Assembly: GCA_902630885.1 (NCBI GenBank)
Contig: CACOWI010000004.1
Location: 8,762 to 72,761, forward strand
Length of the DNA stretch: 64,000 nt
Source: an uncultured SAR86 cluster bacterium
GTDB lineage: Bacteria > Pseudomonadota > Gammaproteobacteria > Magnimaribacterales > D2472
Direction: 5' to 3'
Below are positions 2,524 to 11,511 of the stretch, one piece after another (the stretch's first letter is position 1; each line of letters begins with the position of its first letter). The notes under the pieces are model-generated. The model was not told the DNA's origin. It was given only the letters and a program-made list of their open reading frames with translations, and did no database searches. Position numbers and translations under genes: made by a program.

Positions 2524-3255
2524 GTGATTAAAAAATTTATACACCAATTTGCTTCTCCAAAGACATATCTATATCAAGTAGATAGGTTTTATAGTTATAT
2601 TTTTTTATTTTCCATAATAACTTATATCATTTCTATCACTTGGGGTCTTTTATATACTCCAGAAGACTTTGTTCAAGGTAATTCGTATAGAATTATTTAT
2701 CTTCATGTTCCTGCATCATTTTTATCACAATCTTTGTATATAGCGATGGCAATATCAAGCGTTACTTATCTGATATGGAGGGTTAAGCTTGCCGCATACC
2801 TCGTAATAGCGATTGCTCCCATTGGAGCAATGACAACTTTTATTGCATTGATATCTGGATCTATATGGGGCATACCTACTTGGGGGACATGGTGGCAATG
2901 GGATGCCAGAATAACTTCTACTTTGATTCTATTTATTATGTATCTTGGCTTAATATCTTTGCATAATTCATTTAGTAATCATGAGAAAGCAGATAAATTA
3001 CTCTCGTGGTTAGTAATAGTAGGGGCAATTAACATTCCTATTATTAAAAAGTCGGTTGACTGGTGGAGCACTCTCCATCAATCAGCCTCTATAACTCTCA
3101 CAGATAAGCCTTCAATTGACCCAGTTATGCTTTATCCCTTGATAGGCTCAATAACAGGATTCTTTGGCTTGGTGATATGTTTAGTTTTGCTTTCATCAAA
3201 ATATCAAATATTTATAAGAGAAAAAAATAAATCTTGGGTAAAAGATTATGTTTAA
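2524..3255 (+). CDS. ccmC: heme exporter / heme-handling protein CcmC
   Basis: WWD motif 'WGTWWQWDARITS', polytopic, GTG start. Confidence 0.9.
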   Translation: MIKKFIHQFASPKTYLYQVDRFYSYIFLFSIITYIISITWGLLYTPEDFVQGNSYRIIYLHVPASFLSQSLYIAMAISSVTYLIWRVKLAAYLVIAIAPIGAMTTFIALISGSIWGIPTWGTWWQWDARITSTLILFIMYLGLISLHNSFSNHEKADKLLSWLVIVGAINIPIIKKSVDWWSTLHQSASITLTDKPSIDPVMLYPLIGSITGFFGLVICLVLLSSKYQIFIREKNKSWVKDYV

Positions 3256-3289
3256 TTTTGCATTTAATTCTTTGTATGAGGCCTTATAT

Positions 3290-3415
3290 ATGAATGGTCA
3301 TGGATTATATGTGTGGAGCGTAGTAATACTAGTATTTCTAAGTTTATTAGGCTTTTTTATAGGCTACACTATAAAAATTAAAAAAATTAAAGATAAATTA
3401 AATGAACCCAATTAG
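3290..3415 (+). CDS. ccmD: heme exporter protein CcmD (41 aa; absent from the supplied ORF track)
   Basis: Hand translation gives MNGHGLYVWSVVILVFLSLLGFFIGYTIKIKKIKDKLNEPN*. It has the CcmD-like 'G.G.YVW' start, a single TM and a basic tail. It lies between ccmC and ccmE and overlaps the ccmE start by 14 nt. Confidence 0.7.
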   Translation: MNGHGLYVWSVVILVFLSLLGFFIGYTIKIKKIKDKLNEPN

Positions 3416-3812
3416 AAAGAGAAGAGTCTTCAGTATACTTTTTGTACTTTTATTTTCGGTATCAGGCATTTCATTAATACTATACTCATTAAATTCTAAT
3501 TTGGATTATTTTTTTACGCCCACTGAGTTAAAGGATAGGAATATACCTAGTGAAAAAAGAATAAAGGTTGGTGGCATGGTTCTTAGTGGATCTGTAGAAA
3601 GGGCCTCGTCAAAAATCTCTTTTATAATTACTGATTATGAAAATTCAGTAAAAGTTGTTTATGAAGGCATTGTCCCAGACCTATTTAAAGAAGATAGCGG
3701 TGTTGTAGTTTTAGGAGTTTTAAGAAATAAGACAATTTATGCAGAAGAAGTTTTAGCTAAACATGATGAAAATTATATGCCTCCAAATATTGAAATGAAC
3801 AATGATAATTGA
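3402..3812 (+). CDS. ccmE: cytochrome c-type biogenesis heme chaperone CcmE
   Basis: N-terminal TM anchor, OB-like body and the heme-binding His motif 'LAKHDENYMPP'. Confidence 0.9.
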   Translation: MNPIRKRRVFSILFVLLFSVSGISLILYSLNSNLDYFFTPTELKDRNIPSEKRIKVGGMVLSGSVERASSKISFIITDYENSVKVVYEGIVPDLFKEDSGVVVLGVLRNKTIYAEEVLAKHDENYMPPNIEMNNDN

Positions 3813-5697
3813 AATTTCTCACTTTTTATCAATTTTAGCTACTGGCTTATTTTTTTTAGTCGGTTATTTTTCCATATTTACTCCTTCATCAAATTCAAGC
3901 TATTTATCAAGTTTAATTACTAGAACATATTCACAAGGATTCTTTTTTTTATTTTTTTCTTTCTTAATATATGTATGGCTAGCAATTACAGATAATTTCA
4001 ATGTCGAATATATTGCAAATCACTCTAATACAGCCTTGCCGACTTTTTATAAAATTACTTCCATTTGGAGTGCGCACGAAGGATCTATGTTTCTTTGGAT
4101 AGTTTTTTTATCTCTATGGGGTTTTATATTCAATATCAGAGTCAATAATAATGAAATTTTAAAGCCGAAAAGCATGGGGATAATTTCCTTTATATTAGTA
4201 GGTTTTTTAGTTTTTTTGTTAGCTACATCAAATCCATTTGTAACAATCCTTCCTATTCCACCATTAAATGGAGCAGATATTAATCCAGTTCTTCAAGATC
4301 CTGCACTGGCAATACATCCTCCAACTCTATATTTAGGATATGTCGGATTTGTAATTCCTTTCGCTTGCGCAATTGCTTTTTTGCTTCACGGAGATGCAGA
4401 AATTAACTGGGAAGCTTTAGTAAAAAAATGGTCAGTATCAGCATGGGTTTTTTTAACGATAGGAATAACTCTTGGAAGTTGGTGGGCATATTATGAGCTT
4501 GGTTGGGGTGGATATTGGTTTTGGGATCCTGTTGAAAATGTTGCATTAATGCCATGGCTTGCGGCTACAGCATTTATTCATTCTCTTGGGGTTTCGATAA
4601 AGTCATCACAACTAAGAATTTGGACAATTTTGTTATCAATTTTAGTTTTTTCTTTAAGTTTGTTCGGAGCTTTCATCGTAAGGTCTGGAATTATTGATAG
4701 TGTCCATTCATTTGCAAATGATCCTGATAGAGGGCTCTACTTATTAGGATTTATTGGATTAATTGTTTTTATATCCGTTTTTTTATTTGTATGGAGGTTA
4801 TCAAGCATAAAATCCTCATCTGTAATAAAGAAGTTTTCAAAACAATCATTTATTTCTATAAATAACATTCTTTTTGGAACCTTGATATTTTCTGTAATGT
4901 TAGGAGTTACATACCCTTTAATTTATGAATTTTTATTTGATCAAAAAATTAGTGTTGGCGCTCCATTTTATAATGCAATATTTATACCTGTAGTAGTTTT
5001 AGCATCAATTTTTTTATTTTTTTCGGTCGACTCAAAATGGTCTAGAAGTATTAATTTTGAATTCTTTACTGCTCCTATATTTTTATCGGCCGTATTATCT
5101 TTAGCACTTACTTTTTTTGTAATGCAATTCTTTAATACTCAAAGTATTTCGATACTTGCTTCAATATTTGCAGGCTCATTGATAATATTTAGATATATTT
5201 ATGAAATTATTAATTTTCTATTTAAAAAGAAATACGTAAATCCTTTTAGTGTAATAGCACATATGTCACTCGGATTACTGTTGGTATCTATTTCCTTTAA
5301 TAGTTTGCTTAGCACTGAGAGGGCATTAAGTATAGATATTAATAGTACGGAAGAATATAAAGATCTAAAGATTTTTTTTGAAGATATTGGAGTAGAAAAT
5401 AATTCTAATTACGATTCTATACAAGCATCATTTTTAGTTGAGGATCAGAACGGTAGGGCGTTTAATCTTAAACCAGAGAAAAGAAGATATTTTACAAGAG
5501 GCCAAATAACTACAGAGACAGCAATTCATGTAACTGCTCTGAGAGACATCTATATTACTATTGGAGATCAACTAGATGATGGAAGCTGGGTTGTTAATGT
5601 TCAAATAAACTATTTGATTAGGTGGATATGGTTTTCAGCCTTATTGATGGGGTTTGCTGGAATAATATTAGTTTTTTCAAATAGAGCAAAAGCATGA
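3802..5697 (+). CDS. ccmF: cytochrome c heme lyase subunit CcmF
   Basis: 631-aa polytopic protein with WWD motif 'WGGYWFWDPVEN'. Overlaps the ccmE end and the ccmG start. Confidence 0.92.
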   Translation: MIIEISHFLSILATGLFFLVGYFSIFTPSSNSSYLSSLITRTYSQGFFFLFFSFLIYVWLAITDNFNVEYIANHSNTALPTFYKITSIWSAHEGSMFLWIVFLSLWGFIFNIRVNNNEILKPKSMGIISFILVGFLVFLLATSNPFVTILPIPPLNGADINPVLQDPALAIHPPTLYLGYVGFVIPFACAIAFLLHGDAEINWEALVKKWSVSAWVFLTIGITLGSWWAYYELGWGGYWFWDPVENVALMPWLAATAFIHSLGVSIKSSQLRIWTILLSILVFSLSLFGAFIVRSGIIDSVHSFANDPDRGLYLLGFIGLIVFISVFLFVWRLSSIKSSSVIKKFSKQSFISINNILFGTLIFSVMLGVTYPLIYEFLFDQKISVGAPFYNAIFIPVVVLASIFLFFSVDSKWSRSINFEFFTAPIFLSAVLSLALTFFVMQFFNTQSISILASIFAGSLIIFRYIYEIINFLFKKKYVNPFSVIAHMSLGLLLVSISFNSLLSTERALSIDINSTEEYKDLKIFFEDIGVENNSNYDSIQASFLVEDQNGRAFNLKPEKRRYFTRGQITTETAIHVTALRDIYITIGDQLDDGSWVVNVQINYLIRWIWFSALLMGFAGIILVFSNRAKA

Positions 5698-6215
5698 ATA
5701 TATTATTGAAGTTAATTGTTCTAATAGTACCAGCAATATTTATTTTTCTATTTTTTATAATTCTAACTAATGAAGATGTTTATCCTGGTGCAGATTATGA
5801 TCAATTTGAGTTGCCTGATTTTGAATTAAAGGATCTTGATGATTCCAAAAGAATAAGCATTGATTTCATAGAAGGTGATTATGTCCTAAATGTATGGGCT
5901 AGTTGGTGTATTACCTGCATCGTAGAGCATCCTTATCTTATGAATTTAAGTAAAACTGGAGTCCCAGTCATTGGGCTAAATTATAAAGATGAGAAACAAG
6001 ATGCCATTGTTTGGCTTAAGAAATATGGAAATCCTTATCAGACAATATTACATGACTATAAGGGGAATCTTGCACTTGATTTAGGTGTGACAGGCGCTCC
6101 AGAAACTTTTTTAATTAACAATGGAGAGATCGTTGCTCACTATCAAGGCGAGGTAAATGATCGAATATGGAATGATGTTTTTATGCCAATTATTAAAGAT
6201 AGGGAAATGTTTTAG
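5694..6215 (+). CDS. ccmG: periplasmic thiol:disulfide oxidoreductase CcmG/DsbE
   Basis: N-terminal TM anchor, thioredoxin fold with 'WASWCITC' (CxxC) and 'GVTGAPETFLI'. ATGA overlap with ccmF. Confidence 0.85.
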   Translation: MNILLKLIVLIVPAIFIFLFFIILTNEDVYPGADYDQFELPDFELKDLDDSKRISIDFIEGDYVLNVWASWCITCIVEHPYLMNLSKTGVPVIGLNYKDEKQDAIVWLKKYGNPYQTILHDYKGNLALDLGVTGAPETFLINNGEIVAHYQGEVNDRIWNDVFMPIIKDREMF

Positions 6216-7394: not shown

Positions 7395-9593
7395 ATGCAG
7401 CTAAAACATATAAAACTTGCAGGTTTTAAAAGTTTCGTTGATCCAACGAAGATATCTTTCCCAACAAATATGGTGGGCGTTGTAGGCCCGAATGGCTGTG
7501 GAAAATCAAATGTAATAGACGCTGTTCGATGGGTGCTTGGTGAATTATCAGCAAAAAATCTAAGAGGTGAATCAATGGTAGATGTTATCTTCAATGGTTC
7601 TGAAAATAGGAAAGCATCTGGGCAATGCAGTATAGAGCTTTTGTTTGATAATTCTAGCGCCAAAATCGGAGGAGAATATGCATCCTTCAATGAGGTATCA
7701 ATCAAAAGGGTAATGACAAGAGATGCTCAATCCGATTACTTTATAAATAACACGAAATGTAGACGAAAAGATGTACAAGATATATTTCTTGGCACAGGTT
7801 TAGGACCAAGTTCCTATGCAATCATTGAACAGGGAATGGTAAGCAAACTTGTTAGTGCAAAACCAGATGAATTAAGGACTCATATTGAAGAGGCAGCTGG
7901 AGTATCAAAGTATAGAGAAAGAAGAAAAGAAACAGAATCAAGAATAAAGAGAACAAGAGAAAATTTATCAAGAGTAAAAGATATTCGAGATGAAATTGGA
8001 AGACTTATAAAAAGATTGGAGAATCAAGCTAAAGCTGCTGAAAAATATAATGTTCTTAAGAAAGATAAAGCAAAAATGGAATTAGATAAAGCTATTCTAT
8101 TTTCAATCGAAGCAAAAAGTAATAGGGATGATTTACAAAAAAAGCTAGACTCACTTAACAGAGACCTTCAAATAAAAAATGCTGAGTCTGAAACTGTTCA
8201 ATCACAAATAGATCAATTCAGGACAGAAAACGAATCTGTTTTAAGTGAATATGAGAGTGCTCAAAAGAACTTTTATGCAGTTGGTGCTGAAATAGCAAAA
8301 AGAGAAGCAAATCTTCAAAATATTAATAAAAATGATCAGGAAACAAAATCAAATTTAGAAAAAGTAAAACAAAATCTTGAAAAAGCTAAGGAAACAGAAA
8401 AAAACTTTGATGAATTGAGCCCAAGCGAAAAGGCTATGCATATTCTTAATAGCATGATTAATACGATAGAGAAATATGGAATTACTAACGACAATATAAA
8501 AGAGAAAGCTATTGAATTAAAAGGATTACTTACTGATATTTTAAATATAGCTTCGGCTCAATCAAAAACACTAACTGAGGAATATTTATCGAGACAAAAT
8601 GATCTTGAAGATCAAATTGCTAATGCTGAAAAATTGAAAAAATCTATCGAAAACGAAATGAAAGACTTTGTAGATAAAAGCTCAAGTGCAGAATCTGTTT
8701 TGGTTTCATTGAGACAGAAGCAATCAAAATTTAATGAGGAACTAAGAGAACTTGAAAATAAAAAATCGATAGCAGATTTAGATTCTAGATCAATTTCTGA
8801 AAAAATCATGAACATTAGTATTGAACAAAAAACTTATGAAGTTAATCTTGATAACTCAAACAAAAAAATTAAAGAAGCTGGTATAGATATAGAAAAAATT
8901 GATTTTTCTGAATATCAGAATATAACCCTAGAAGAGCTTGAAGAAAATTTAGTTAATATTGAAACAAAGATAATAAAATTAGGCGCTATAAACTTAGCGG
9001 CACCAGAGGAAATAAAAGAGGAATCAAAACGAAAAGAAGAGCTTGATGAACAATATGATGACTTGACTGAAGCTCTTGATAAGCTTACAGGTGCAATTAA
9101 AAAAATCGATCAAGAGACTAAAACCATTTTTAAAGAAAGTTTCGATTCAGTTAACTTAAAACTAAAAGAAATGTTTCCAAAATTATTTGGTGGAGGGTTA
9201 GCTGAATTAACTTTAACCGAGGAGGATGCTTTAAATGCTGGTGTAATTTTGATGGCAAGACCTCCTGGTAAAAAAAATTCATCTATATCTCAACTTTCAG
9301 GCGGTGAAAAAGCTTTGACTGCACTGGCATTAGTATTTGCAATTTTTGATCTTAATCCGGCTCCTTTTTGTTTGCTTGACGAGGTTGACGCCCCTCTAGA
9401 TGATTTAAATACAGTGAGATTTATAAATATGGTCGAGGAGATGTCAAAAACTGTTCAGTTTATATTTATTACCCATAATAAAGTTTCTATGGAAAGAAGT
9501 GATTACCTTATGGGTGTAACCATGCAAGAGGCTGGTGTCTCCAGAATGGTATCAGTTGACGTGAATCAGGCCCTTGAATTGGCTGAGACATAA
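7395..9593 (+). CDS. smc: chromosome partition protein SMC, unusually short (732 aa), no recognisable hinge
   Basis: Canonical SMC N-terminal head 'LAGFKSFVDPT..VGPNGCGKSNVIDAVRWVLGE.SAK.LRG'. C-terminal head has signature 'QLSGGEKALTALALVFAIF' and Walker B 'LLDEVDAPLDD'. Heptad-rich K/E/Q-rich region lies between. Followed by zipA as in other gammaproteobacteria. Confidence 0.8.
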   Translation: MQLKHIKLAGFKSFVDPTKISFPTNMVGVVGPNGCGKSNVIDAVRWVLGELSAKNLRGESMVDVIFNGSENRKASGQCSIELLFDNSSAKIGGEYASFNEVSIKRVMTRDAQSDYFINNTKCRRKDVQDIFLGTGLGPSSYAIIEQGMVSKLVSAKPDELRTHIEEAAGVSKYRERRKETESRIKRTRENLSRVKDIRDEIGRLIKRLENQAKAAEKYNVLKKDKAKMELDKAILFSIEAKSNRDDLQKKLDSLNRDLQIKNAESETVQSQIDQFRTENESVLSEYESAQKNFYAVGAEIAKREANLQNINKNDQETKSNLEKVKQNLEKAKETEKNFDELSPSEKAMHILNSMINTIEKYGITNDNIKEKAIELKGLLTDILNIASAQSKTLTEEYLSRQNDLEDQIANAEKLKKSIENEMKDFVDKSSSAESVLVSLRQKQSKFNEELRELENKKSIADLDSRSISEKIMNISIEQKTYEVNLDNSNKKIKEAGIDIEKIDFSEYQNITLEELEENLVNIETKIIKLGAINLAAPEEIKEESKRKEELDEQYDDLTEALDKLTGAIKKIDQETKTIFKESFDSVNLKLKEMFPKLFGGGLAELTLTEEDALNAGVILMARPPGKKNSSISQLSGGEKALTALALVFAIFDLNPAPFCLLDEVDAPLDDLNTVRFINMVEEMSKTVQFIFITHNKVSMERSDYLMGVTMQEAGVSRMVSVDVNQALELAET

Positions 9594-10220
9594 ATGAGTA
9601 TTAATACAGAAATATACTTAATAGGCTTGTCTGTTTTAATATTTCTGATAATTACTTTTTTGTTCATAAAAAAAATATCGAATGATGGGAATTTAAAAGT
9701 AAAGATTGAAAAAATAGCAGATTCATCAAACCTAAAAAAGTCAGTTGATCATCCTGGAAATCAACAGTCATTTGATTTTCAAACAGATCATACTAAAGAA
9801 CAAGAATTGGTGATATTAAATTTAATTTCTATGGATAAATCTATGTTTGATATAGATCAATTATTTGGATTTTTATCAAATTATGGTGCGAAAATCGTCA
9901 ATAATTACTTTGCTTTTTACCAAGATAATAGAATAGAAAAATTTAGAGTAATTAATGCTTTAAAACCCGGAATCTTTGAAGATGAAACTAAAACATTTGC
10001 AATAGCAGTTGCCTCTGATCTAAATGTTGTAGATGATCCTTTAAATACTGTTAAGCAAATGATTGAATTTTCAATTAACTTTTCAGAAAAATTTTACGCA
10101 ACACTTTGTGATCAAGATAGGACACCTATAACAAAACAGATGATCGCACATATTGAATCTAGAGCCCAAGAAATTGCAAGAATGAAACAGCTTAATAATA
10201 CGTCTATTGAGGAACAATAA
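9594..10220 (+). CDS. zipA: cell division protein ZipA, short form (208 aa)
   Basis: N-terminal TM anchor. The C-terminal domain is alignable by eye to the E. coli ZipA FtsZ-binding domain ('VINALKPGIFED' vs 'LANMVKPGTFD'; 'LCDQDRTPITKQMI' vs 'LDDQRRMMTPQKL'). The ATG abuts the smc stop. Confidence 0.75.
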   Translation: MSINTEIYLIGLSVLIFLIITFLFIKKISNDGNLKVKIEKIADSSNLKKSVDHPGNQQSFDFQTDHTKEQELVILNLISMDKSMFDIDQLFGFLSNYGAKIVNNYFAFYQDNRIEKFRVINALKPGIFEDETKTFAIAVASDLNVVDDPLNTVKQMIEFSINFSEKFYATLCDQDRTPITKQMIAHIESRAQEIARMKQLNNTSIEEQ

Positions 10221-10224
10221 ATCG

Positions 10225-11511
10225 ATGATCGAGCCTTGGAAAATTATCCTTGAACTTGAAAGTGATAACAGTCGACTATTTAAAGAGGGCATTGTTGAAA
10301 AATATCTTAAGGACAAAGTATTTCAAGAAGGTCTTGTTATGTGTCTAGATCCTTTGACTACTTTTGGAGTTAAACAAGTGCCTGAATGTAATGAAGATGG
10401 TGATGGTCTTAGCTGGAATGATTTTAAAAAAGCTGCAGATCAATTAATAGATAGAGAAAAGACCGGCCATGCAGCTAGAGATTTAATTCTTGATCTTATA
10501 AATTCTTCAAAAATAGATCAGTGGAATAATTGGTATCGTAGAATTCTGATTAAGGATCTAAGATGTGGAGTAAGTGAAAAGACAGTAAACAATGTTGCAA
10601 AAAAAATGAATCTAGAATTTAGAGTGCCTATTTTTTCTTGTATGCTTGCTCATGACGGAGCCAAACACCCAAAAAAAATTAAAGGTGATTGCTTGGTTGA
10701 ATATAAATATGACGGAGTAAGGGTAGTAGCAATTGTTAAGAATGGAAAGGCAACTCTATACAGCCGTAATGGAAAGATATTTACTAATTTTCCTCACATT
10801 GAAAGCGCCTTAAGTAAAAAGGAATACAACAATTTTGTTTTTGATGGAGAGGTAATGAGTGATGATTTTCAAGCTCTAATGAAACAAGTATATAGAAAAT
10901 CAGGAGCAAAAACTGACGATGCTTATCTCGCTTTATTTGATATCCTGCCTCTTAAAGAATTTAATGACGGTAAAAGTAAATTAAACTCTATTGAAAGAAA
11001 AGAAAAACTTAACGAATTAGCACAAACTTTTGGAGATGCAATTAAGTTAGTAGATTATGAAATTATTAACTTTGATACTGAAGAGGGGCAGACTAAATTT
11101 TCTGAGATGAATAAGGAAGCCCTAGAAAAAGGTTTTGAGGGCTTAATGATCAAACCAAATGATAATTTTTATGAATGTAAAAGAAGTCATGCTTGGTTGA
11201 AAATAAAACCATTTATAGAAGTTACACTAAAGATTATTGACATACAAGAAGGATCTGGAAAGCATGAAGGCAAGTTAGGTGCCTTTCATGTAGAGGGTGA
11301 AGATGACGGAAAGTTTTTTTCACTCAGCGTTGGAAGTGGTCTCACTGATGATGATAGAGAAAGATTCTGGGCAGCAAAAGATAAGCTTGTTGGGAGAATG
11401 GTTGAAATAAGGGCAGACGCAATAACTCAAAGCATTGAGGGTGAGCACTTTAGCTTAAGATTCCCAAGATTTAAAAATTTTAGAGGATTTAAAGAGGATG
11501 AAAAGATTTAA
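10225..11511 (+). CDS. ATP-dependent DNA ligase (three-domain: DBD-like, adenylation, OB)
   Basis: Motif I 'EYKYDGVR' (KxDG lysine), motif III 'FVFDGEVM', IV 'YLALFDIL', V 'EGLMIKP', VI 'LRFPRFKNFR'. I chose the ATG at 10225 (GAGGAA 10 nt upstream) over the TTG at 10207 in the ORF track. Confidence 0.85.
   Translation: MIEPWKIILELESDNSRLFKEGIVEKYLKDKVFQEGLVMCLDPLTTFGVKQVPECNEDGDGLSWNDFKKAADQLIDREKTGHAARDLILDLINSSKIDQWNNWYRRILIKDLRCGVSEKTVNNVAKKMNLEFRVPIFSCMLAHDGAKHPKKIKGDCLVEYKYDGVRVVAIVKNGKATLYSRNGKIFTNFPHIESALSKKEYNNFVFDGEVMSDDFQALMKQVYRKSGAKTDDAYLALFDILPLKEFNDGKSKLNSIERKEKLNELAQTFGDAIKLVDYEIINFDTEEGQTKFSEMNKEALEKGFEGLMIKPNDNFYECKRSHAWLKIKPFIEVTLKIIDIQEGSGKHEGKLGAFHVEGEDDGKFFSLSVGSGLTDDDRERFWAAKDKLVGRMVEIRADAITQSIEGEHFSLRFPRFKNFRGFKEDEKI

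Follow-up and report, generated by a model that had tools for sequence, protein, structure and literature searches.

A natural hinge-less, half-length SMC protein in the marine SAR86 lineage

The smc locus and the domain organization of its product

The window analyzed in this study was a stretch of 64,000 nucleotides from contig CACOWI010000004.1 of assembly GCA_902630885.1, which belongs to the abundant marine SAR86 lineage. An open reading frame at 7395..9593 (+), stop codon included, encoded a 732-aa protein identified as a true Smc orthologue. The next gene, at 9594..10220 (+), encoded a 208-aa ZipA with a ZipA_C domain (4.8e-11), placing smc in the expected smc-zipA position, and the same neighbor was found in metagenome contigs. 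The protein scored 813.2 bits on NCBIfam TIGR02168 (SMC_prok_B), against a cut-off of 567.35, in two stretches; residues 2-355 matched model positions 1-353, and residues ~399-722 matched positions 855-1181. A BLASTP comparison with a full-length, 1171-aa gammaproteobacterial SMC (P0123) aligned residues 1-330 to 1-330 (53 % identity) and residues ~400-730 to 839-1169. The N-terminal 330 aa were 49-56 % identical to the SMC of Cellvibrionaceae, Porticoccus and Pseudomonas. About 500 residues are therefore missing, corresponding to the hinge and the distal half of each arm (model positions 354-854 were unmatched), and about 45-70 helical residues stand in their place.

The ATPase head was complete. 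Its N-terminal half, at 7395..7889 (+) (aa 1-165), contained FKSF at residues 11-14, GPNGCGKSN at 31-39 (Walker A GPNGCGKS at aa 31-38, nt 7485-7508) and the Q-loop Q146, with a within-genus pairwise identity of 0.95. The C-terminal half, at 9189..9590 (+) (aa 599-732), contained the signature LSGGEK at aa 634-639 (nt 9294-9311), the Walker B FCLLDE at aa 658-663 (nt 9366-9383), LLDEVDAPLDD at 660-670, the D-loop and H694. Walker A, Q-loop, signature, Walker B, D-loop (DAPLD) and H-loop were invariant in nine sequences from four families of the order.

Between the two head halves, an AlphaFold2 (AF2) model showed residues 170-494 as helices with no strand. The N-terminal arm helix, including the neck, at 7902..8414 (+) (aa 170-340), was modeled with a pLDDT of 80-91 and was collinear with residues 170-~340 of full-length SMC. 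The C-terminal arm helix, at 8490..8876 (+) (aa 366-494), was collinear from about aa 400 with residues 839 onward of a full-length SMC. It was followed by the joint, a coiled-coil discontinuity at 8877..8999 (+) (aa 495-535) with breaks and short helices at 504-507 and 512-528, and by the C-terminal neck helix at 9000..9188 (+) (aa 536-598). The neck helix, with a within-genus identity of 0.84, is the expected docking site for the ScpA N-terminal domain, a role inferred from the known Smc-ScpA structure 3ZGX. Sequence and fold searches of the PDB recovered Smc head, neck and joint structures, 3ZGX among them; the best Foldseek hit was 5XEI, an Smc head with coiled coil and joint, although the Foldseek search of the whole model was uninformative about the tip. 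A crude heptad-periodicity scan was also uninformative, and AF2 secondary structure was relied on.

At the far end of the arms, a tip module at 8421..8570 (+) replaced the hinge and the distal arms. It comprised a short helix (aa 343-361), a loop (362-365, GITN) and the start of the returning helix (aa 366-~392); only about 25 residues separated the two arm helices. The midpoint string FDELSPSEKAMHILNSMINTIEKYGITNDNIKEKAIELKG was located at residues 338-377. A locally conserved apex motif, EKNFDELSPSEKAMHI, was found at 8397..8444 (+) (aa 335-350, E335-I350) and contained a helix break at S342-P343. AF2 confidence at the tip was low (pLDDT 54-65), and the underlying alignments were shallow, at 9-14 sequences. 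Hydrophobic density peaked at 353-360 and 375-388, and a profile search of the tip region against PDB sequences returned only chance-level hits.

Absence of the hinge across the SAR86 order

The original prediction, made from the sequence alone, described a miniaturized SMC with textbook heads, no recognizable hinge and no CxxC hook, and proposed that such a condensin would need another way to dimerize. The observation was confirmed and the interpretation was supported, as each of the refutations that accompanied it was tested and none held. Pfam showed SMC_N spanning residues 3-716 and no SMC_hinge (PF06470) match at E<=1 in the protein, in the whole genome, or in 40 related genomes searched in six frames. 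Alignment of the central region by hhalign against verified gammaproteobacterial hinges gave a probability of 0.2 % for this family and 0.6 % for the longer families. The only cysteines were C35, C78, C122 and C659, leaving none between residues 123 and 658 and no CxxC in the center. A cryptic, extremely diverged hinge, or a separately encoded hinge-like partner, could still be proposed to provide dimerization, as the longer families (810-827 aa) carry an extra ~80-aa segment of unknown fold at the apex. However, this segment was modeled in an 822-aa relative as two helices with no strand, whereas the hinge is an alpha/beta fold, and we consider this explanation very improbable.

An assembly artefact or a decaying pseudogene allele was also considered, as the genome is a 16-contig, 79 % complete draft. 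More than 120 independently assembled proteins of exactly 732 aa were found at 94-100 % identity, and one of them was listed in 68 blocks of the collection, including Tara Oceans contigs and contigs longer than 1 Mb. Of 40 relatives, 37 had a match, all of them short, and single-contig genomes of the order had the short gene. Sizes were 730-732, 732-733, 810 and 822-827 aa in the four sampled families, with no full-length relative among them. The gene contained no stop codons or frameshifts, and an artefact or decayed allele was refuted by these results together with the selection analysis below. In a survey of 121 genomes of the class, one per family, 109 had an SMC match. Apart from fragments at contig ends, the matches were single full-length stretches (open frames mostly ~1150-1250 aa), the exceptions being the two SAR86 genomes and two odd cases, genomes G151 and G147. 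Other families of the class have full-length SMC, so the loss is specific to this order.

Selection on the gene and retention of its partners

Ten of eleven genus orthologues from relatives were exactly 732 aa and one was 730 aa, and a DNA alignment of 12 sequences had 2196 columns and no gap. Nei-Gojobori dN/dS for the closest pair was 0.033 overall, 0.006 in the N-terminal and 0.017 in the C-terminal half of the head, and 0.045 in arms plus apex; all-pair medians were 0.08-0.12 in arms and apex. These values are approximate, as dS was about 1 and near saturation, but they indicated that the whole protein, arms and tip included, is under purifying selection.

The expected partners of Smc were retained. 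In this genome scpA and scpB were adjacent (contig C5, 88717-89872; G000:C5:88717-89872), and ScpA and ScpB were each present in 37/40 genomes, ParB in 36/40, and MukB (PF04310) in 0/40 at E<=0.01. This bears on the possibility that the protein has changed function to become an SMC-derived, RecN/Rad50-like repair or other DNA-bridging ATPase, leaving SAR86 in effect without a canonical condensin. The overall architecture resembles RecN, with heads, a short coiled coil, no hinge and no hook; NCBIfam gave weak secondary matches to Rad50 and ASRP models; and a 2025 paper speculated that hinge-less SMCs may perform another function (PMC12153180). However, the protein passed the Smc equivalog cut-off by a wide margin, whereas the Rad50 models scored 38-53 bits against cut-offs of 700-1087. 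It also occupies the smc-zipA slot, no other SMC or MukB was found, and ScpA, ScpB and ParB, which have no known role without Smc, are retained in every family of the order. A change of function is therefore regarded as unlikely.

A hinge-less Smc and the joining of its subunits

We interpret the gene as encoding the organism's only SMC-type condensin ATPase, a vertically inherited gammaproteobacterial Smc that, in the ancestor of the SAR86 order, lost the hinge domain and the distal half of both coiled-coil strands through an internal deletion that roughly kept the two strands in register. The heads, neck and joint are intact and highly constrained. Each arm strand is about 190 aa, against about 340 aa in canonical Smc, which at a standard coiled-coil rise would give a rod of roughly 28 nm instead of about 50 nm. 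We infer that the protein still assembles with ScpA and ScpB2 into an Smc-ScpAB complex, which is loaded at ParB/parS and uses ATP-driven head engagement to organize and segregate a chromosome of roughly 1-1.3 Mb. That this is a functional hinge-less Smc orthologue working with ScpAB is very likely, while our confidence in the interpretation as a whole, including the tip contact described below, is moderate.

How two subunits are joined is unresolved. We favor a model in which they are joined at the far end by their short helical tip modules (aa ~335-392, with the conserved EKNFDELSPSEKAMHI motif, the S-P kink and a hydrophobic-rich helix pair) rather than by a hinge doughnut, the tips probably forming a small helical bundle, helped by arm-arm zipping and by the kleisin bridge at the heads. 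We consider this about as likely as not to be the way the ring is closed. The 335-350 motif was nearly invariant in 12 genus members, while the flanking arm was 0.73-0.77 identical. In a 995-aa variant with a nested duplication of the arm, the copy at the true tip kept about 50 % identity to residues 330-401, against about 25 % for the rest of the duplicated arm, as counted by hand from the alignment. Hydrophobic density peaked just after the apex break in three of the four families, one family (f4) showing only a weak peak. However, the tip sequence was not conserved between the four families, and within the genus the tip region as a whole (0.72 identity) was no better conserved than the arms, only the 335-350 and 375-401 patches being so.

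The alternative is a hinge-less Smc that does not dimerize at the tip, forming an open 'V' or a small kleisin ring with no Smc compartment between the arms, which would then serve as levers or spacers. The lack of a tip sequence shared by the four families, the absence of a hinge, CxxC or known dimerization motif, and the low AF2 confidence at the tip are consistent with this, as is the finding that the neck and cap regions, which carry the kleisin contacts, were the best-conserved non-catalytic parts. The conservation of length without indels and the purifying selection on the distal arm and tip are hard to explain if the far end does nothing, and the 335-350 motif was retained at the true tip of the duplicated variant. 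In B. subtilis, moreover, replacing the hinge required another dimerizing element, the zinc hook (PMC5344682). This alternative remains possible but is the less likely of the two.

Comparison with known SMC systems

Canonical Smc of the Smc-ScpAB complex (B. subtilis Smc; structures 3ZGX, 5XG3, 5H68, 5XEI) has orthologous heads, neck and joint, but is ~1150-1190 aa long with ~340 aa per arm strand and a hinge, whereas the SAR86 protein is 732 aa with ~190 aa per strand and a ~25-50-residue helical tip. Buermann et al. (2017, PMC5344682) described a functional Smc(Zh) chimera of B. subtilis, in which the hinge was replaced by a Rad50 zinc hook, and Mini-Smc proteins with shortened arms that work only at certain lengths. 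Those laboratory constructs keep either a hinge or a hook, and the shortest functional arm in the truncation screen of hinge-bearing Smc was ~253 aa, while the SAR86 protein is natural, shorter and has neither. By analogy with Smc(Zh), we infer that the hinge-specific DNA site and any hinge gate are dispensable. The arm length of ~190 aa did not fall on the natural modes reported for hinge-bearing SMCs (163, 238 and 341 aa), and the ~91-99-aa periodicity of Buermann et al. was rejected as an explanation, as differences between families arose from apex insertions rather than arm changes. Rad50/SbcC dimerize through a CxxC zinc hook, which is absent here. RecN (~550 aa) is a different family with no kleisin partners; it probably dimerizes through the tips of its coiled coils (Pellegrino et al. 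2012), which would make it the nearest mechanistic analogy for a helical tip dimer.

Literature searches on the SMC hinge in SAR86 or Pelagibacter returned nothing relevant, but hinge-less SMC variants have been reported from ocean metagenomes (PMC12153180). They have SMC-type heads, an antiparallel coiled coil, no hinge and no CxxC, and are abundant in the ocean; that cluster was placed near Actinobacteria and described from gene-catalogue sequences, without genome context or partner analysis. The nearest full-length relatives of the protein described here are gammaproteobacterial, and ScpAB and ParB were shown to be retained.

Current models of SMC action (DNA entrapment, segment capture, loop extrusion, hinge-head communication) assume a hinge-joined dimer with ~50-nm arms. 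The retention of motor, kleisin, kite and loader under strong selection, with the hinge and half of each arm gone, speaks directly to which parts of an SMC complex are essential. The proteins are small and form a graded natural series of 732, 810, 825 and 995 aa, which suits them to structural, single-molecule and complementation work, and the pattern links condensin architecture to genome streamlining in very small marine cells. More speculatively, and with roughly even chances, a hinge-less, short-armed Smc-ScpAB may be the normal chromosomal condensin of the ocean's most abundant streamlined bacteria and may have arisen at least twice independently. If so, the hinge, regarded as a defining and near-universal SMC element, would be dispensable for chromosomal SMC function in nature, either because a minimal helical tip is enough to close the ring or because no tip contact is needed at all, and these roughly 28-nm complexes would be the smallest natural SMC-kleisin motors.

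A similar hinge-less SMC was found in SAR11 (Alphaproteobacteria), where open frames were mostly ~800-890 aa and 40 of 41 genomes had the short form. Without a phylogenetic tree, the independence of the SAR86 and SAR11 losses rests on identity levels, the SAR86 protein being 49-56 % identical to gammaproteobacterial SMC against 31-32 % to SAR11, and on the different deletion boundaries in the two groups.

Sequence and conservation of the short SMC

The original prediction of a miniaturised SMC with no recognisable hinge domain was confirmed. The gene at 7395..9593 (+) was an uninterrupted ORF of 732 aa, and the motifs named in that prediction were present: FKSF at 11-14, the Walker A motif GPNGCGKSN at 31-39, the signature LSGGEK at 634-639, the Walker B / D-loop LLDEVDAPLDD at 660-670, and the midpoint string at 338-377. 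The only cysteines were C35, C78, C122 and C659, so the centre had no CxxC hook. A Pfam search found SMC_N spanning residues 3-716 and no SMC_hinge, even at E<=1. The NCBIfam Smc equivalog TIGR02168 scored 813 bits against a cut-off of 567, in two stretches, with residues 2-355 matching model positions 1-353 and residues ~399-722 matching 855-1181. A BLASTP comparison with a 1171-aa gammaproteobacterial SMC was collinear, as residues 1-330 aligned to 1-330 at 53 % identity and residues ~400-730 aligned to 839-1169. About 500 residues were therefore missing, namely the hinge and the distal half of both arm strands, and roughly 45-70 residues stood in their place.

The next gene, at 9594..10220 (+), carried a ZipA_C domain. 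This ZipA was only 208 aa, consisting of a TM anchor and the C-terminal FtsZ-binding domain with the long linker largely missing, and represented another example of protein shortening in this genome. An ATP-dependent DNA ligase (PF01068 plus OB_2, 434 aa) followed zipA at 10207..11511 (+), its start overlapping the zipA end, where gammaproteobacteria normally carry NAD-dependent ligA.

The genome is a 1.06-Mb draft of 16 contigs, and an assembly deletion was considered. However, the protein database held more than 120 independently assembled proteins of exactly 732 aa at 94-100 % identity. One of them was listed in 68 blocks of the collection, including Tara Oceans scaffolds and contigs longer than 1 Mb, always between the ccm genes and zipA. 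Among 40 relatives, every genome with a match had a short SMC, including single-contig genomes and all four families of the order. Sizes were 730-732 aa in this genus and, in the other three families (f4, f3 and f2), 732-733 aa, 810 aa and 822-827 aa, respectively. The best named relative, an "uncultured SAR86 cluster bacterium", had a 728-aa orthologue.

In a survey of 121 genomes, one per family of the class, an SMC match was found in 109. Apart from fragments at contig ends, these matches were single full-length stretches, with open frames mostly of ~1150-1250 aa. The two SAR86 genomes were the hinge-less exceptions, along with two odd loci that may be further hinge losses or pseudogenes. 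In one genome (G151:C5:317967-321066), model 1-424 and model 862-1181 lay in different open frames (703 and 514 aa) with the middle missing, and in another (G147:C5:51513-52622) only a C-terminal piece (model 807-1181) lay in a 379-aa frame. The nearest cluster representatives outside the order were likewise ~1150-1180 aa. Other short SMC representatives outside SAR86 were also found; two of these (P0231, 990 aa, and P0245, 1003 aa) kept a hinge and were short-armed, while a third (P0181, 906 aa) showed no hinge at E<0.01. The shortening is thus a derived trait shared across the order, not an assembly deletion.

Absence of a hidden hinge

Six-frame searches of the genome itself and of the 40 relatives gave no PF06470 match at E<=1, while the control genomes gave matches. 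To search for a diverged hinge, the hinge regions of ten full-length gammaproteobacterial SMCs were aligned, 8 of 10 of which hit PF06470. Comparison of this alignment by hhalign with the central 140 residues of this genus gave 0.2 % probability, and comparison with the longer centres of families f2 and f3 gave 0.6 %.

AlphaFold2 modelled the protein as helix 170-340, a break at S342-P343, helix 343-361, loop 362-365, helix 366-494, a joint at 495-535 and helix 536-598, with no strand in the centre. In the model of an 822-aa f2 member, the N-terminal arm helix ended at the same residue, 361, and the extra ~80 residues formed two further helices, 369-405 and 411-443, before the returning arm at 447-584. 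Both models were of modest confidence (pLDDT 71-75, shallow alignments), although the arms themselves were at 80-91. These predictions indicated that the size differences between families lie in the apex, not in the arms, and that the apex is helical throughout.

Selection and retained partners

The heads were invariant at all catalytic motifs across four families that are otherwise 42-47 % identical. Ten of the eleven genus orthologues from relatives were exactly 732 aa and one was 730. A DNA alignment of 12 genus sequences (the window, two metagenome contigs and nine relatives) had 2196 columns with no gap, at 86 % mean column identity. Nei-Gojobori dN/dS for the closest pair was 0.033 overall, 0.006 and 0.017 in the two head halves, and 0.045 in arms plus apex, while all-pair medians were 0.08-0.10 in the arms and 0.12 in the apex. 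As dS was about 1, these values are rough, but purifying selection clearly covers the whole length.

ScpA and ScpB were adjacent in the genome itself, and each was present in 37 of 40 relatives. ParB was present in 36 of 40, and MukB was absent from all 40. The TIGR02168 search found no second SMC-like gene. This is therefore the lineage's only SMC, and it keeps kleisin, kite and loader.

Proposed mode of action

The head, neck and joint were canonical, and the best PDB matches were Smc head, neck and joint structures such as 5XG3, 3ZGX and 5XEI. The arm was about 190 aa per strand, which at a standard coiled-coil rise would give roughly 28 nm. We infer that the protein still forms an Smc-ScpAB complex loaded at ParB/parS, and it almost certainly still works with ScpAB. 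The interpretation that a condensin built this way would need another way to dimerise stands but remains open.

Three observations pointed to a functional tip module. First, a locally near-invariant motif, E335-I350 (EKNFDELSPSEKAMHI), contained the S-P helix break and was followed by a variable stretch at 351-374 and a conserved stretch at 375-401, all within arms that were only 0.73-0.77 identical. Second, hydrophobic density peaked just after the apex break in three of the four families. Third, a 995-aa SAR86 variant (protein P0122, at 3001-5988 of metagenome locus L122) in the same ccmF-ccmG-ccmH-(ccmI-like)-smc-zipA synteny had arms lengthened by a nested duplication of the arm hairpin. 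This variant was seen on one metagenome contig only, but the duplicate copies were only ~31 % identical, so it is not an assembly artefact. The inner copy, at the true tip, kept the LSPxEKAxH tip motif and, by a hand count from the alignment, about 50 % identity to residues 330-401, against about 25 % for the rest.

We therefore favour dimerisation through a small helical bundle of the two tips, aided by arm zipping and the kleisin bridge, although this is a proposal based on sequence and monomer models. It would be analogous to RecN, which appears to dimerise through its tips, and is consistent with the finding that the B. subtilis hinge can be replaced by a Rad50 zinc hook (PMC5344682). However, the tip was not conserved between families, and AlphaFold2 confidence there was low. 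The main alternative, which we regard as less likely but possible, is a complex joined only at the heads by ATP and ScpA, with free arm tips.

Comparison with known SMC proteins

By score, motifs, partners and locus, the protein is an Smc orthologue. It lacks two features used to define SMC proteins, the hinge and the ~340-aa arm, and we therefore regard it as a variant of Smc rather than as a canonical member. Buermann et al. (2017; PMC5344682) reported natural arm-length modes of 238, 341 and 515 aa, with possible minor modes at 163 and 423 aa. In their arm-truncation screen, the shortest functional hinge-bearing constructs had arms of 267-253 aa. They located arms between head and hinge, which by our reading means that hinge-less proteins fall outside their survey.

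The general idea of natural hinge-less SMCs is already published. A 2025 study (PMC12153180) reported an abundant cluster of "hinge-less" SMCs in ocean gene catalogues, placed them near Actinobacteria and gave no partner or genome analysis; it mentions neither SAR86 nor Actinomarina-type names, and its supplements gave no sequences to compare. The SAR86 case itself, its order-wide conservation, the retention of ScpAB and ParB, the fixed arm with a variable apex, and the selection data were not found in the searchable literature.

Hinge-less SMCs in SAR11

Short SMCs were also found in SAR11 (Pelagibacterales). Two Pelagibacteraceae contigs (L086:3001-5397 and L093:3001-5436) encoded SMCs of 798 and 811 aa, with 670-bit, two-stretch TIGR02168 matches and no PF06470 match. 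In a sample of 41 genomes of that order, 40 had a short two-stretch SMC in which the hinge part of the model was skipped, and intact open frames were ~800-890 aa. SAR86 heads were 49-56 % identical to gammaproteobacterial SMCs but only 31-32 % identical to the SAR11 proteins, and the deletion boundaries differed. The two losses therefore look independent, although this rests on identity levels and boundaries rather than on a phylogenetic tree. ScpA was present in 39 of the 41 SAR11 genomes.
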